64,000 nucleotides of DNA, taken from assembly GCA_951406725.2 (NCBI GenBank), contig OX597814.1, forward strand, positions 169,756,001 to 169,820,000, read 5' to 3'. The stretch is from Octopus vulgaris (taxonomy: Eukaryota). The position numbers and the translations under genes are program-made. Positions 50,942 to 58,593 of this stretch are shown here, piece by piece. Position 1 is the first letter of the stretch; every line of letters starts with the position of its first letter. A model generated the notes under the pieces. The model ran no database searches. It saw only the letters and a program-made list of their open reading frames with translations, and was not told where the DNA came from.

Positions 50942-52309
50942 TTCACAGGTATAATAAATAAAACAACAGTAAGCTACAGTTTTTTATATTTTTTTCTAAA
51001 TTTCAAAATTTAAAACAGTTCTTTTTTGTTTAACTTTCCCTGTGAAGAGCACCAATACTTTTTATTTGATCTCCAGTGTGCCATAAAGTTAAAATAAAAA
51101 CAACCTAAGATCAGAAAGCAGTAGCATAACTAATAACAGTTGTATTATAAATTTTAAAACAATAAAGCAGCAATTGAAAAAAAAGTCTTGTATACGGTAT
51201 AATGTTGTTAAGTATTGACTGTAGAAATATTAACATATTTTGGAAGAGCCATATTAAAACTGATAGACAAACTGCTTGTTTCTTACCATAAGGTAAATTT
51301 TCTTTAACCCTTTATTGTTCAGATTAATTTGTCAAATATAATGCTTATCTGTTCACATTAATTTTGATTTATTCAGGTTCAAGTGGGGTATTCACAATAT
51401 TTGCTTGTAACTTTGTTAATTTTCTACATACAGATTTGAAATTTTGTAAATGGGTGCTTATATGCCAGTGGTTTATAGTTACATAATTTTAACTGATCAT
51501 TCTGATTAAATTTGAATTTTATGGACAGGTAAATTTAATTAAAAGGTGTAAAAACAATAACATTATGAATAAACACTAAAATTCATATTCTTAATACATC
51601 TTACCTGTTTAATTTGTTACTAAAATTATCCCAGATGTCAACTGCCAACAATTTTACATTTTACAAGATAAGGTACATTAATTTGAATTAATAAAAATAC
51701 AGGTGTAATCAGTACAAGATTTTATTCTTTCTCTATATTTTATTCAAACATTTTCATTGAAAATAATGTACAAAACTCTTTTACAAGTCAATATAGCATT
51801 AGCTGTGTACTCTTATACAATTTAATGAATTCATTTACGTAACAGAATGCAACTAATAAAAGAAAGCTCATTAACAGGTGAGACAAAGGTGAATACAGGT
51901 GTGTAACATACTGAAAATTAATATGTATTTCTCACTTCCACATATTATTTATAATAAAATGAAAAGGAATATATGACAAAATAATATCTTTTTCTTTTAT
52001 CTTTTATCTTTTACTTGTTTCAGTCATTTGACTGCGGCCATGCTGGAGCACCGCCTTTTAGTCAAGCAAATCGACCCTGGGGCTTATTCTTTGTAAGCCC
52101 AGTACTTATTCTATCGGTCTCTTTTGCCGAACCGCTAAGTGACGGGGACGTAAACACACCAGGGGAACAAACACAGACACACAAACACATACACACACAT
52201 ATATATATATGCATATATATGACAGGCTTCTTTCAGTTTCCATCTACCAAATCCACTCACAAGGCTTTGGTCGGCCCGGGGCTATATATAGTTATAAAAT
52301 AATATAGTT

Positions 52310-53909
52310 ATGACATATTTCTGCATGAAACTGTCCAAAGCACCCTTTACAGAAAGGCACTGCAAAAAGAACACATATATGAAGTCTTAATCTGATACCC
52401 TATTGCAGTTTTTCTTTTTTGCAGTAAACACAGTCTGCAAACTTTCTTCCATTTATCTTTTCGACTTTATGAAAGTCAATATTTTCTCTATTGACATCCA
52501 CCTCAGTTAATTTTGCTTTTCTCCCTGTTCTGTGCTTTCTAGAAGAAAAAGCCCTCACATAACTGAGATGCAATGTCAGCTTGAAAGTTCAAATGGTTGT
52601 AGTCCTTTGGTGGCTTTTTACATTTACAATATATGAATTAACTATAGTTAAATTAACTAAAAACCGCAAAATGTACCTCTACCATTTCTTCCCAGGTTGA
52701 CCGATATTGGTCAGATTTATCAACCCCACCCATATATTTGTTACAACAAATATTCACTAGGGGTTTTCTCTAGGCACCAACACCAGGTTGTTCATTAGTA
52801 GACAGAAATAAAATTTGTCTTTTGTCTTTGAAAGCAGTAGCTAATAAATTTTCCTTTTACATTTGTAAAATGTCCCCTCTTTTTTGTAATTTTGTTTTCA
52901 TTTCACAGGGTAAACCTTTACAGTTGCTCATAACAGTACTGCACATGTAAGTACTTACACGGGCAAAATTTTCTGCCAAAGCCACTGAAGTAAAAAAATC
53001 GGTCAAAATAGAGGTGTCAGTGCTGATGGTGAAATGGTTCAGTAAGAGACCCTACTACATCATGTCCTAATCCATGTGGTCTGTTTCTATTATATTTTTT
53101 ACCTGTATGAACATCAAAATTTACACAATATCCTATGTCTGATTCACAAACTTCTTATACCTTGATCCTCCATTTAGTGGGTTTGGCAGGCATGTACTGC
53201 AGAAAATGTACTCTGCCCTTATAGCCTATCATGGCTTCATCTACACTGAGATTTTTCCAAGGTAGATACACAGTTTTATAACTATTAAGGCGTAAATCAA
53301 TTACAGGGGATTATAATTTGGGTCATTTTTCCTGGGGGCATTAACAGAATCAAATGTAAATTCTGAGATATTTTCGAATACCTCATCTTTGACATTATAC
53401 TTGAGATATGGATCACCATATCTTATATCAGGACTCCAGTAGTTTCACAGTCAAGGAAGCTGTTTAACACCAAACATAATATTGATTGTGAAAAACTCTC
53501 TCATTTCTGCAGAATAAGTTGGCTGCCTTAGTGGAACGTTTCTTCCACAAATAGAAATTAGACGTTGTGCATATTTGTTTGTTTCCTCCATAACATTTTC
53601 AAAACAACTTTCCGGTAAAAGTAAAAATAGATAGTCCAATGGTTGAGCATCAGGAGGTAAATTGTGTTGTGGACCAGTGTTTTCTGTGAAATCAGGAATA
53701 GTGATTGGTGTTGTAATCTTTGACCATCATGCCATGTTTACGATATCATTTTCATCACTTTTGTTTCCAAAATCTTCCTCGTCCAATGAATATTCGCTAA
53801 TATTGATATCAGATTCATCTGAAGACAAAATACCCTTGTTTTCATTTATATTTTCTATATCATCAAGAGTAAAACCTTCAAAGTTGGAATCATTACCTGC
53901 TGACGCCAT
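52310..53909 (-). pseudogene. piggyBac (PGBD4-like) transposase pseudogene
   Basis: Acidic N-terminus MASAGNDSNFEGF; ETNKYAQ; catalytic triad LSVDEAM, LYFDRFF, VGVDKSDQ; YMPAKPTKW; C-terminal CRLC..CSFC Cys-rich domain; many stops and frameshifts. Confidence 0.92.
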
Positions 53910-53962
53910 TTCATTAAAAACTAAGGTACAGACTTCTCTTCAAACATTGAAAAAAAACCCAT

Positions 53963-56026
53963 TCTTTTAAGGGGCCGACAAAGAGGTGACAACACAAACA
54001 CATGTGGGGACATATAACATAAAAATAAATAAATATTCAAAATAAAATTAAAATTTTGATAATATGAATGAATAACGAAAATGAACAAAATGGAAACGCA
54101 CTGCTTGCCCCACCTCAAGCAGCATCATTTACTTCCTTTTATCTTGGGAGTCCTTTTAACATGTTCAAGCTGAGTTTTTCTAACAGTTCCTTATAACCAA
54201 TAGGATCTTTTCAGTTTGAACGGCAGTTTTTTCTAGCGGTGTCATATGAAATTGTCACCCATAATTATGACCCTAGTATCGATCTATTGCATTTCAATCT
54301 GTTTTAGGGTTAGGGTTAGAGTTAGGGTTAGTTAGGGTTAGGGTGAGGGAAGGGTATCTTTTTTCCTTCAGAAATGTAAATAAACCCAATCTGTTTTTTA
54401 AACGAGGGACATATTCATATGGCACAGAATGTTTTCACCTCAATAGACGTCATTGATTGGTTGAAATTGCAGAAACTGAAAAAAAAACAACAACAAATAT
54501 CTTACAAACTATAGAATTTTCTCAATAAAGCCAAGAGAAAAAGATGTTTTATAAACACATTCTACCAGTATACGAAGTTTAAAAGTGTTTAGCTACGTGG
54601 AAATTATTTTAAAAAACTGCCGTTCAAACCGAAAAGATCCAACCAATATTGTCCATTATCCTTTACAAGTCTGCATAAATTTTCCAATATATATAACCTT
54701 CTTTATATTTCTTTACTTTTTCCATTTGTTTCTCCGGAAGTAGCACCCACGTGTGCCACCCTACTGTGTTGGATATCCTTCAACGTTCACAAATTTCCCT
54801 GTTTTCCATTCTGTTAGCTTACAAATCAGTTCCTTGCTCTCCCTATCCATCAAAAAACATACATAACTAGATTCACAGGGAGGGGAGTTTTGTATATTTT
54901 GTTGTGTTTTCTTTCTCTTTTTTTTTTGGACTGTGTAGGATGGAAATGGGTGGGTTCGGTGTCTGTAGGGGGAGGGTGAATCTGAGATGGTGTGGGTGGG
55001 GTGGATATGGCTTGGGGTTCCACTTCACAGAGTTCCTTCTTCCTCTGTTACTGTCCACATTTCTTCCTTTTTCTTTTCTTCCTCCTGTACGGCCTCTTGC
55101 TTATTCTCTAACTCCTATTCAGCTTTTTCCAGATTTTGCTTCTGTAGAGGACAGTGTACTCTAATGTGGCGAAAAAGGCCACCTTTAAAACAACGAGGGG
55201 TTCTGCCCTCTACCCACACTTTCAAAATCATGTCACTGATAGTAACCGTCTCTGCCAATCTTTCCAGGGTTTCTACCTTGGCCTGTACAATGAGGTCTAG
55301 CATTTTTCCTTTCCACATCGACCCTTCCGTTTCGGTGACCTGGAGGATGGCCACTTCCTAGGAGGACAGCTGCCGCAACCCATGTCACACTATATCTGAA
55401 GGGGCACCCTTCACCCTAATCTTGGAAGTTCTTCTACCAAGATAAGTAGGTAGAAGGAACACTTTGTCTTCACTGTTTATGGCTTTCCTCTTTGCTGTTC
55501 CCTTTGTTCTGAATTGTATGACGACTGTCCCGTACCTGCTTCCTCTTGCCAAAAACTCTACATCCCTCCATACCATGCACAACGCATTCTCAATTATTTG
55601 TTCTTCCATGTGTTCGATCTTTTATCCCTCCACCGAGTAGACTTTGTATCCTATGGTTTTCTTAACCATGTCATCCATTACTTTCTGGGGTGGGGACAAC
55701 TTTACATCACCACCCACTCTGCTTGCCATCTTTTGATATCTTTTCATGCTTGACATGTCTATCTCCTTCTTCTTCACTTCTGTCACTTCTGCAAAACTTT
55801 TCCTTTCCAAGCACTTGTCCGTCCTATCCACAGCCATAACGAGTTCCTCCTCCGAAGAAGACAACTCCTAAAACCACTCAGGTCTGAATAACACATCCTT
55901 CCACAAGCCATTGCTATCCCTCATTCATATGGAGAGAAAGCACAATCAAAAGCCGCTGCAGAGCAGCAACAAATTTTCACTTCCAATACTTACAACCAAC
56001 AGCATCAAAAGAGCATGGAGACACAT
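53963..56026 (-). mobile_element. ORF1-only Tx1/L1-like non-LTR retroelement, copy B
   Basis: Disrupted ORF1 from 55864 (LLPTYLGRR..VWVEGRTPRCFKGGLFRHIRVHCP, zinc-knuckle-like); T-rich 3'UTR ending ggcccctt-aaaaga; no RT/EN seen. Confidence 0.75.
54203..54640. mobile_element. Merlin-like MITE carrying internal (TTAGGG)n
   Basis: 30-bp TIRs ggatcttttcagtttgaacggcagtttttt / aaaaaactgccgttcaaaccgaaaagatcc; exact 8-bp TSD aaccaata; telomere-like hexamers at ~54303-54345; superfamily inferred from GG ends and TSD length. Confidence 0.8.
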
Positions 56027-56045
56027 AAACATTGAAAAAAACCAT

Positions 56046-57766
56046 TGATTTTTTTTATTACCCACAAGGGGCGAACACAGACGGGACAATACATAACATG
56101 TGGGGACATATAACAAAAAAACATATAATAAAAACCATGTGGGGATATAAAACAATAAAAAAAAATAAAATCAACATAGAGAATATGGGATGATAATGAA
56201 AATGAGAAAAATGCAATGAAACTACCCGGCCCCACCTCTTAGCAATTCCATTTCTGCCTTTTAACACCTCTTTATACCTTGAACCTTCTAAACTATCTTC
56301 ATCATGTTCTTCCAACAATTTTTCATTTGCTAAAAGGTCTGGTAGTTTGTTCCAATCAAGTTCCACTTCCCACCAATCATATCCACTTTCATGCCTTGCC
56401 AACCTCACCTTTGTTCCTCTGTGGTTACCACACATTGGTGCCGCCTCTTAACATTGTCATACCCCTCTGTTTCCACTTCTTTATACTCTTCCCATGTCAT
56501 TACCGCCTTACATAATTCCTCATTTGAATCATCACACATTATTACAATACATTTTTTCTTTTCTGCTTGGCTGGAGGGAGCTTGACGGTTTTTGTGTGTA
56601 CTTGTTTCCTTTTCCTTTTGTTTTTGTGTTGGAGGGGAATGAGTAGGCTTGGTGTCTGCGGGGGGAGTGGATGTATGTAGGGGTGTGTGTCTTGGGGTTT
56701 AGAGTTCGAAACACTTGCGTTCTTTCTCTTTCTTCCAGCGACTTTTTCCCACTTGTTCTCCATTGCTACTATTTCCTCCTCCTTTTTGGTTTCTTCCACT
56801 TTTCTGGAACGCTCCAACCTCTCTTCCTTTTTCTCCTCCATATTCCTTAGTTGCTTCTCCTCTGCTTTTTTGGTCTGTGAAGGGCAGTCCACTCTAATGT
56901 GGTTCATTTAGGCCACATTTAAAGTATCTGGGGACTCTGCTCTCCACCCTGACCATCATTATCACATCATCCATAATTATTGACTCTGTAATATTTTCCA
57001 GAGTCTTGGTTGATCCCTGAACAATCAGATTCAGTGTTTGTCCCTTCCATATCATGCTTTCCTTTTTTGTGGCCTGGAGAACCACCTATGTTGTCCCCAT
57101 TTCCAAGAAGGGCAGCGTCTGCTATCCAGACCACATCAGTCTCTAGCAGAATTCCTTCTATGCTGATTCTTGTTGCTCTTAGTCCTCGGTAAGTGGGCAG
57201 AAGCACCACTTCCTCACTCTTGATGAATGTCGCTGCTTGCTTCCTTGCTGTTGCCACATCCTCTACTACTCCAAACATCAAACCTCTTGCGAGGTACATG
57301 ATATGACTCCATATCAATCTCAGAGCCTTTTCCACCTGGTCCGTAGTCACAATGTCAATTTTTCAATTACTCATGGAAAAGGTTCGGTACTTTATTGTCC
57401 TTTCCTTATGTGTCTCTTGGGGTGGGGGGACAGCTTCACCTCAAAACCATCCCGACTTACTAAATTTTTATACCTTCCAAATTTTCCAATATCCATTTCT
57501 CCTGGTATTTTGCCACGTCAGCAAAATTCCTCTTCTCCTTCTTCAATTGATCATCCATCTTCAGGACTGCCTCCAACAATTCCTCTTCCGACTACGATAT
57601 GTCTGAGAAGCTATAGTCTTCAACACACATTTTTTTACTAAAGCTATCTCTCCTCTCACGAGAAAAGAAAGCGCAAACAAACAAACAAACTGCTGCAAAG
57701 CAGCACAACAAGTTCAAATACTATAGAAAAAAAACACCAGTACAAAAAGCAAAGTATAAAATATAC
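56046..57766 (-). mobile_element. ORF1-only Tx1/L1-like non-LTR retroelement, copy A
   Basis: Disrupted ORF1 homologous to copy B (LLPTYRGLR..VRVESRVPRYFKCG..HIRVDCP); 3' end gccccttgtgggtaat-poly(A). Confidence 0.78.
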
Positions 57767-58593
57767 AAACGTTGAAAAATCCATGTGGTCTAAACAATTT
57801 CACAGTATTTATACTTGAATAATGGCAGGAAAGGCTTCATCTCGCATTATCTCAAAGCTACGAGAATTCAATTACATGATTTGTTTATTTTTTTAATGAT
57901 TTTGTAGAGCAGTCTGATACGGCCGGATTTGGCCAGTTTGAACAAATACAGGGGAATTAATTTTGGCTGGTTTGAACACTTATCCTGTAACCTTCTTGTT
58001 AGGTTTATAGGCTTGAAAGTGAAAATCTTCCAACGTATACTATATTTGATGGCATAAAATAAAATTAAATAAAAGTTAACCTCAGTGGAATTTGAACACA
58101 AAGCACTGAGGTTGGAACAAATACCACAAAGCATTTTATTCAATACTCTGATGACTCTGCCAGGGAGAATAATTTAAATATGCATACCTACAAACAAACA
58201 TAGATATGTTTTATCAATATCGTGTTTGTTTTTATTTTTAGCAGACTAAACTTATATGGCTTTGTTAAGAATTCCTTGCACTCTTACAAGTGGCTACTGG
58301 AAGCTGAAAATGTGGTATTGCAAAGAATGTACTGATAATGAGAGAAAGCATTCTAGCTTAGATTAATAGGTTTTGACAGAAATGACAAACAAGCGTGAAA
58401 ATCCACTTAAAGAGAAACATTAAAAAGTAAAAAAACTTTTACTATTTTGCAAGAAATTATATCAACAGCAGCAACAGCAGCAGTGGCAGCAGCAAACAAC
58501 AATATAATACATGCTAGTAAGAGAGCTTTGCACAAATGTTTGACTATTAAGAGTAGCAAATAACTCTCTCTCTCTCTCTCTCTCTCTTCTTCT

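Follow-up and report, generated by a model that had tools for sequence, protein, structure and literature searches.

Two retroelements stacked in a piggyBac transposon

We studied a stretch of 64,000 nucleotides of the Octopus vulgaris genome (contig OX597814.1, positions 169,756,001 to 169,820,000, hereafter called the window), in which two retroelements, named A and B, lie one behind the other inside a DNA transposon of the piggyBac type. Positions given for these features are those of the window, and all of them are on the minus strand. The host is a degraded piggyBac copy (51308..57980), about 2.65 kb long when empty, recognised by PF13843 on its transposase frames, by CCC...GGG ends with a TTAA duplication, and by the TTAA-CCCTTTAGTGTTC ends of sister copies. 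Its 3' end is kept, with CCCTTTA/TTAA at 51304-51314 and the TTAA itself at 51304-51307, and its 5'-terminal TTAA-CCCTTT has been lost. A first-pass annotation of this DNA had supposed that the ends were left intact for hitch-hiking, which the missing 5' terminus makes impossible for this copy.

In the 5' to 3' direction of the transposon, its 5' part is followed by a short motif, element A, the motif again, element B, the motif a third time, 32 nt and the transposase ATG at 53909, in agreement with the order described in the first-pass annotation. The piggyBac 5' region (57785..57980), comprising the inner terminal inverted repeat (TIR) and a predicted promoter, is 84-92% identical to the 5' ends at 39 other listed loci and adjoins the single motif in empty copies. 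The predicted TATA box of the transposase gene, TATAAATA (57806..57813), begins 29 nt upstream of the first base of the motif. The transposase itself (52290..53909, the end coordinate being approximate) carries stops and frameshifts. The pattern AAACRTTGAAAAA has three exact matches in the window, all on a single strand and starting at 53942, 56027 and 57767, which bears out the earlier statement that the motif occurs three times in register; by chance, with one mismatch tolerated, a mean of 0.78 matches is expected, and 4 of 100 shuffles reached three. The copies read ATGGATTTTTCAACGTTT (57767..57784, 18 nt), ATGGTTTTTTTCAATGTTT (56027..56045, 19 nt) and ATGGGTTTTTTTTCAATGTTT (53942..53962, 21 nt); they correspond to the 5' duplication, a middle copy common to A and B, and the 3' duplication, respectively.

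Element A (56046..57766) is a full-length, ORF1-only retroelement, in which the first open reading frame (ORF1) is broken (approximately 57630-56255), with the remnant of a CCHC knuckle near 56900-56930, a hairpin with a G-rich loop in the 3' untranslated region (UTR) near 56235, and an A-rich tail. Element B (53963..56026), also ORF1-only and of another subfamily, has a broken ORF1 starting at about 55911, a CCHC remnant near 55160-55190 and the hairpin near 54113. Without a later insertion described below, B measures approximately 1.62 kb, compared with 1.72 kb for A. The poly(A) previously assigned to A is in fact a fixed A-rich end (...GTGGGTAATAAAAAAAATCA) with no long poly(A), and the tail of B is partly deleted.

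Empty and filled piggyBac sites

The arrangement had been interpreted as two successive insertions, each duplicating a target of about 19 bp. This is upheld by the 18-, 19- and 21-nt copies, by empty sites with a single motif and by host-private variants. Among 77 piggyBac junctions from this genome (63 rows, 13 loci and L219), 63 are empty, with a single motif, and 12 are filled; the upstream side is missing from the other 2. The search for empty single-motif copies proposed in the first-pass annotation thus shows that the motif belongs to the host. Elements of type A fill the window site, L004, the duplicated pair L005/L008, L219, L220 and L218, and B-related elements were found at L097, L214, L215 and L217. 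The remaining occupant, at L185, is a 118-nt truncated tail of autonomous type without a duplication. L218 (C3:121.8 Mb) is a second stack, in which the order is reversed, a B-related element standing in front of A. At L215 and L218, variants private to the recipient host are present in both duplicated copies, so that these insertions were independent and the duplications derive from the recipient. Templating of the 3' duplication by read-through was rejected on the same grounds. The filled hosts are scattered over a host tree of star shape, which favours insertion at this site in separate events. In the window and at L004, L005, L008 and L097, a small sample, the T run is shorter in the 5' duplicated copy than in the 3' copy.

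All seven A-type loci (at least 82% identity; best 40 of 849 candidates), including the duplicated pair, lie at the piggyBac site, and the suspicion that most copies would lie at unrelated sites was thus not borne out for A. When the 5' end of A was used for the search, with 22 of 22 candidates scored, the six that covered the 5' terminus were all piggyBac sites and no off-target A was seen. These seven of seven flanks lie above the level at which Kojima speaks of site specificity, more than 20% of flanks being one repeat. Filled sites were more frequent in one piggyBac subfamily (11/44 versus 1/31, p=0.012, with subfamilies assigned by hand), an excess that is suggestive only, since it is confounded with age and falls to p=0.068 without three loci ascertained through the element.

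Nature of the elements

A and B each contain one broken ORF with the CCHC remnant and no reverse transcriptase (RT). They are homologous to each other, with 67-83% identity in blocks by blastn and a non-CpG divergence of 0.32. The ORF of a better-preserved relative, L007 (391 open codons), matches PF00098, the closest named relatives of the ORF are Octopus bimaculoides proteins, and the ORF1 of a young intact relative resembles RRM/CCHC clusters in Atlas, which we mention as a lead only. The ORF is also 41-45% identical to the ORF1 of the full-length elements L157 and L164, whose ORF2 has the arrangement APE-RT-zf-RVT. The domains of the autonomous ORF2 are PF03372 (APE), PF00078 (RT) and PF13966 (C-terminal zinc domain), and its best PDB match is human L1 ORF2p (E 5e-70). 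In uninterrupted short copies the tail follows approximately 450-850 nt past the ORF1 core, with no match to ORF2 in between; the short units measure 1.62-1.72 kb, and intact tandem copies are present in L161/L165.

The short and autonomous elements resemble each other at the 3' end as well. Over its last 25-31 nt, A shares 90-92% identity with the tails of two autonomous elements (L164/L158), and the G-loop hairpin folds in A, in B and in 3 of 6 autonomous 3' UTRs. In 18 short elements 76% of the cells of this hairpin are paired, and double changes occur in 7 of its 8 pairs. A possible pseudoknot would form, in A, B and the autonomous 3' UTRs, if the GGGG loop (at 56235 and 54113 in the window) paired with a CCCC that lies downstream, close to the tail. 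Between subfamilies with measurable synonymous divergence, the ratio of nonsynonymous to synonymous substitution (dN/dS) in ORF1 was 0.12-0.34, other pairs being saturated, and within one subfamily it was 0.59; ORF1 is under purifying selection between subfamilies. On the basis of the ORF1 homology, the lack of an RT, the shared 3' tail and hairpin, and the dN/dS values, A and B are read as ORF1-only, non-autonomous long interspersed nuclear elements (LINEs) of the L1 group. Membership of the Tx1 clade is likely; the list of homologs of the autonomous relatives contains no named Tx1 element.

Convergence of several lineages on one nucleotide

In a tree of ORF1 sequences the occupants of the piggyBac site fall into at least three groups, and A and B belong to different clades. 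Forcing the piggyBac-site elements into one clade (9 rows versus 50) lowered the log-likelihood by 622, with an approximately unbiased test p-AU of 1.9e-5. At least three separate lineages thus converge on the same piggyBac site. The distribution of targets over the tree was assessed on 53 of 121 rows, elements at unique or unresolved sites and the long-branch row L231 +4095 being excluded. The target label changes 19 times on these 53 rows, compared with a mean of 37.9 and a minimum of 33 after shuffling (0/500 shuffles with 19 or fewer). Subfamilies keep their targets but do switch, and the same target recurs in distant clades. The earlier view of A and B as strongly diverged, probably separate families with the same specificity is borne out as to divergence (0.32) and clade; as to specificity it needs qualifying for B, whose nearest relatives lie mostly at other targets.

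Other targets of the family

More diverged relatives were found at other recurring repeats, with duplications of approximately 13-30 bp and about ten recurring targets overall. These include the 5' UTR of a Mariner transposon (PF17906 downstream), a repeat followed by a gag-like frame (DUF7083) that is probably a long terminal repeat (LTR), the heads of two repeats that we take to be short interspersed nuclear elements (SINEs), several unnamed repeats and the 5' ends of other LINEs. In an Rfam search of 7 target loci, all matches were either driven by microsatellites or below threshold. In the set L319-L382, one large ORF1-only lineage hits a single position approximately 22 nt inside a SINE head, accounting for 26 of the 39 tailed elements of the set, and another SINE head is hit at about +14.

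Some elements carry old targets at their 5' ends (L116, L098 and probably L214/L215). L116 lies at a unique site, and its 5' end (1419-1480) holds two copies of the Mariner target inside a different duplication, which suggests that donor transcripts start at the duplicated target and that earlier insertion sites are recorded there.

Three hosts, piggyBac, Mariner and LTR, hold the element in sense orientation, with a TATA box that starts at -29, -29 and -30, respectively, against a background of 4% per 10-nt window. TATAAATA was present in 31 of 37 piggyBac junctions matching the exact anchor and is probably a promoter element of the transposase gene; near -30, a fourth repeat contains a word similar to TATTTAAG. 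The spacing characterises three hosts and is no general rule. General homing to start sites was considered and is not supported by the data, truncated autonomous-tail insertions and most unique sites having no TATA at -30.

A second ORF1-only lineage, which shares this tail and in which ORF1 is open over 481-511 aa, forms young tandem arrays (L161, L162, L163 and L165, e.g. L165:9-8200); the sequence flanking them upstream resembles ORF1 from another LINE, and no clear duplication was seen. A SINE-like repeat of approximately 180-270 nt (L228:1300-2100; L229:7095-7400), arranged in head-to-tail arrays, ends in this 3' tail too, so that this group of LINEs likely mobilises it as well.

The autonomous partner

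Members of the Tx1 clade prefer multicopy targets, and their duplications measure roughly 15-23 bp. Neither tail-plus-target patterns nor four piggyBac searches (best 40 candidates each) turned up an autonomous element at the piggyBac site. Absence is not shown by this, as the patterns are insensitive: one of them picked up 4 junctions, whereas L002, L005, L008, L097 and the window escaped it. The insertions of one autonomous tail family lie at diverse sites and have duplications of 11-18 bp. For one autonomous family the four tails shown all have (TC)n flanks, and L164 and L290 share a repeat target. The young autonomous family L151, L152, L155 and L157, in which the ORF2 of L157 is intact (1138 aa), is flanked by (TC)n, similar to the preference described for Kibi in the part of PMC4494074 that deals with it. 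Full-length autonomous elements of different subfamilies form head-to-tail stacks at L232, L158 and L160. At L245:1501-1616 and L262:1501-1616 (minus), an autonomous-type element in sense orientation ends 32 nt before the ATG of a histone H3; this may be a single insertion that was duplicated together with the histone repeat.

Proposed mechanism and alternative explanations

Very probably, A and B are ORF1-only elements of the L1 group, likely of Tx1 type, that entered the site successively through target-primed reverse transcription; a full-length relative capable of recognising the site would supply the endonuclease and RT. The ORF2 protein of this relative would bind the shared 3' hairpin and tail of the short RNA and thus mobilise it in trans. 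It would nick piggyBac at CCAC/ATGG and prime reverse transcription there, and a staggered second cut would duplicate 18-19 bp. Site choice would be set by the endonuclease of the partner, by analogy with the part of PMC1950540 that describes Tx1L. Because each insertion leaves two intact target copies, later elements could stack in front or behind, and stacks were observed in both orders. With less assurance, the site may be favoured since the target begins where transcription from the piggyBac promoter is predicted to start. The sense, promoterless element may then be transcribed by the host and terminated at its own AATAAA, so that the transposase would be cut off.

A bolder proposal, which we regard as improbable, is that the octopus harbours a long-lived radiation of promoterless ORF1-only parasites that home in on the nucleotides with which transcripts of mobile elements begin (piggyBac, Mariner and LTR, 29-31 nt past the TATA box), are transcribed by their hosts and silence the host gene by their own poly(A) signal, the target copy at the 5' end of the RNA guiding the choice of the next site and recording past ones. 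If true, such a radiation would have a heritable yet switchable specificity without an endonuclease gene of its own.

Several observations weigh against the main interpretation. The nearest relatives of B are mostly at other targets: the window and L097 are at the piggyBac site, L092 and L093 (76-78% identity) are elsewhere, and two of the three nearest long relatives are off-site, so B is probably not a piggyBac-specific family. The sole autonomous-type sequence at the piggyBac site is the L185 tail, whose relatives sit at many unrelated sites. The hairpin pairs better than shuffles and slid controls, but these controls leave relatedness in, and the helix was picked by eye from the same sequences after RNAalifold on a MAFFT alignment had missed it. 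The TATA spacing was noticed post hoc and holds at 5 of 25 sites, two of them trivially in (TA)n runs. It is absent from all 8 truncated autonomous-tail sites and the autonomous L290 site, and from the SINE-head targets except one (TA)n run. A pre-stated test on 39 new tailed elements, mostly at SINE heads (26 + 4), added a further Mariner match and a unique site lacking the TATA box, and no new class of host.

The principal rival explanation is that the RNA and its promoter, more than a dedicated endonuclease, set the site: transcripts initiated at the start site of the host would begin with the target, their cDNA would anneal to a matching target and preferentially complete its insertion at that place, and one loosely specific partner would serve all subfamilies. 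Close relatives do use many unrelated targets and distant ones the same targets, three hosts have a TATA box at -29 to -31, some elements keep old targets at their 5' ends, one autonomous tail family with its 11-18 bp duplications occupies diverse sites, and Kojima raises co-transcription with the target as a means of strengthening specificity (PMC4494074, in the part concerned with it). However, neither duplicated copy at L215 and L218 can come from donor RNA, as both carry the private variants of the recipient, the SINE-head targets lie 14-22 nt inside the SINE with no TATA box ahead, and the 5'-truncated L185 tail, which has no target copy, is at the same position. The recipient-derived duplications and L185 argue against a target copy at the 5' end of the RNA as the sole cause, and we consider this explanation unlikely.

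Hitch-hiking, in which one or two chance insertions were amplified by a transposing composite piggyBac without any real site specificity, would account for the identical 5' junction of the A copies. It would also fit their divergence, since non-CpG divergence is 0.08-0.105 between A copies and approximately 0.07-0.11 between hosts (one misaligned pair at 0.23), and the host tree, being a star, has little power. Some A copies could indeed have been copied along with piggyBac, which is a further point against independent insertion of each of them. The overall pattern is not explained in this way: at least three lineages and a truncated tail occupy the same nucleotide, two stacks have opposite orders, and host-private variants occur in both duplications. 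We hold this explanation to be largely refuted and very unlikely. Hardly conceivable, finally, is that A and B represent an old local tandem duplication or that the motif is the 5' end of the elements themselves, even if some relatives do carry old target copies at that end. The A-B divergence of 0.32 far exceeds that within the host family (about 0.09) and the two lie in separate clades, each having closer relatives elsewhere, which excludes a local duplication, a possibility already raised in the first-pass annotation. The motif is also present in the 63 empty junctions; this explanation is refuted by the empty sites and the tree.

Relation to known systems

The Xenopus precedent invoked earlier is, for Tx1L and Tx1D, in print: Tx1L is a non-LTR element inserted at one site of the piggyBac-type Tx1D of Xenopus laevis (PMC4494074, PMC1950540), and its endonuclease nicks almost only its target, according to the relevant part of PMC1950540. 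The octopus elements resemble this system in that a non-LTR element is inserted at one site of a piggyBac-type transposon, Tx1D being non-autonomous. Unlike Tx1L, which is autonomous and whose endonuclease is of demonstrated specificity, the octopus occupants encode ORF1 only, belong to several lineages per site and lie in a transposase-encoding host. A second comparison is provided by the crocodilian SINEU-3 and Tx1-Mar, which are stacked around one duplication in Mariner-N4_AMi, a case for which hitch-hiking was considered and transcription from the flank was proposed, in the section of PMC4494074 devoted to it. SINEU-3 is, as described there, likewise non-autonomous, uses the target of a Tx1 partner in a DNA transposon and forms tandem insertions sandwiching one duplication; it is a short non-coding SINE derived from small nuclear RNA, with many copies antisense at about position 240. 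The octopus elements, in contrast, are 1.6-1.7 kb long, protein-coding, in sense orientation and 29 nt past a TATA box, with approximately ten recurring targets.

Among ORF1-only LINEs, HAL1 is not known to be site-specific and HeT-A targets telomeres. HAL1, HeT-A and Ag-Sponge, which belong to the L1, Jockey and CR1 clades, respectively (PMC5753468, PMC5786205), are like the octopus elements composed of the 5' part of a LINE and its 3' tail and encode ORF1p only. The octopus group differs in being likely of Tx1 type, and the parts of those two papers that treat such elements give no Tx1-derived example. A recent annotation of the Octopus vulgaris genome reports 13 L1-Tx1 families with recent activity, and its main text does not use the word 'target' (PMC13282606). 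In the literature searched, which did not cover Repbase Reports, Dfam and most subscription journals, we found no report of ORF1-only elements of Tx1 type or of a site-specific case in molluscs. Targeting of DNA transposons by Tx1 and ORF1-only LINEs are thus known separately, and their combination was not found there. Added here to the first-pass annotation are the ORF1-only nature of the elements, the convergence of several lineages on one nucleotide, the family-wide use of transposon targets and a possible capture of promoters.

These data indicate that ORF1-only derivatives of LINEs can parasitise other transposons in a site-specific manner and that separate lineages can converge on one nucleotide. 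They also provide many natural target switches in a single genome, and some 5' ends preserve old targets like fossils, which makes it testable how much of Tx1-type specificity is due to the endonuclease and how much to co-transcription of the target. Should the placement behind a promoter prove real, such insertions would also be a means by which retroelements shut down DNA transposons, as in one piggyBac subfamily about a quarter of the copies sampled are split at this site.

Other features of the locus

Two unrelated insertions complete the locus. A short SINE-like repeat (51987..52286, plus strand) lies in the piggyBac 3' region, where it corresponds to a gap relative to empty copies, and recurs elsewhere in the window. 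The later insertion within B is a miniature inverted-repeat transposable element (MITE) of 438 bp (54203..54640), with 30-bp TIRs (GGATCTTTTCGG...), an 8-bp duplication (TATTGGTT) and internal TTAGGG repeats. Its TIRs start with GG, and it is present in high copy number, 39 other copies matching at 93-95% among the best 40 of 3768 candidates.

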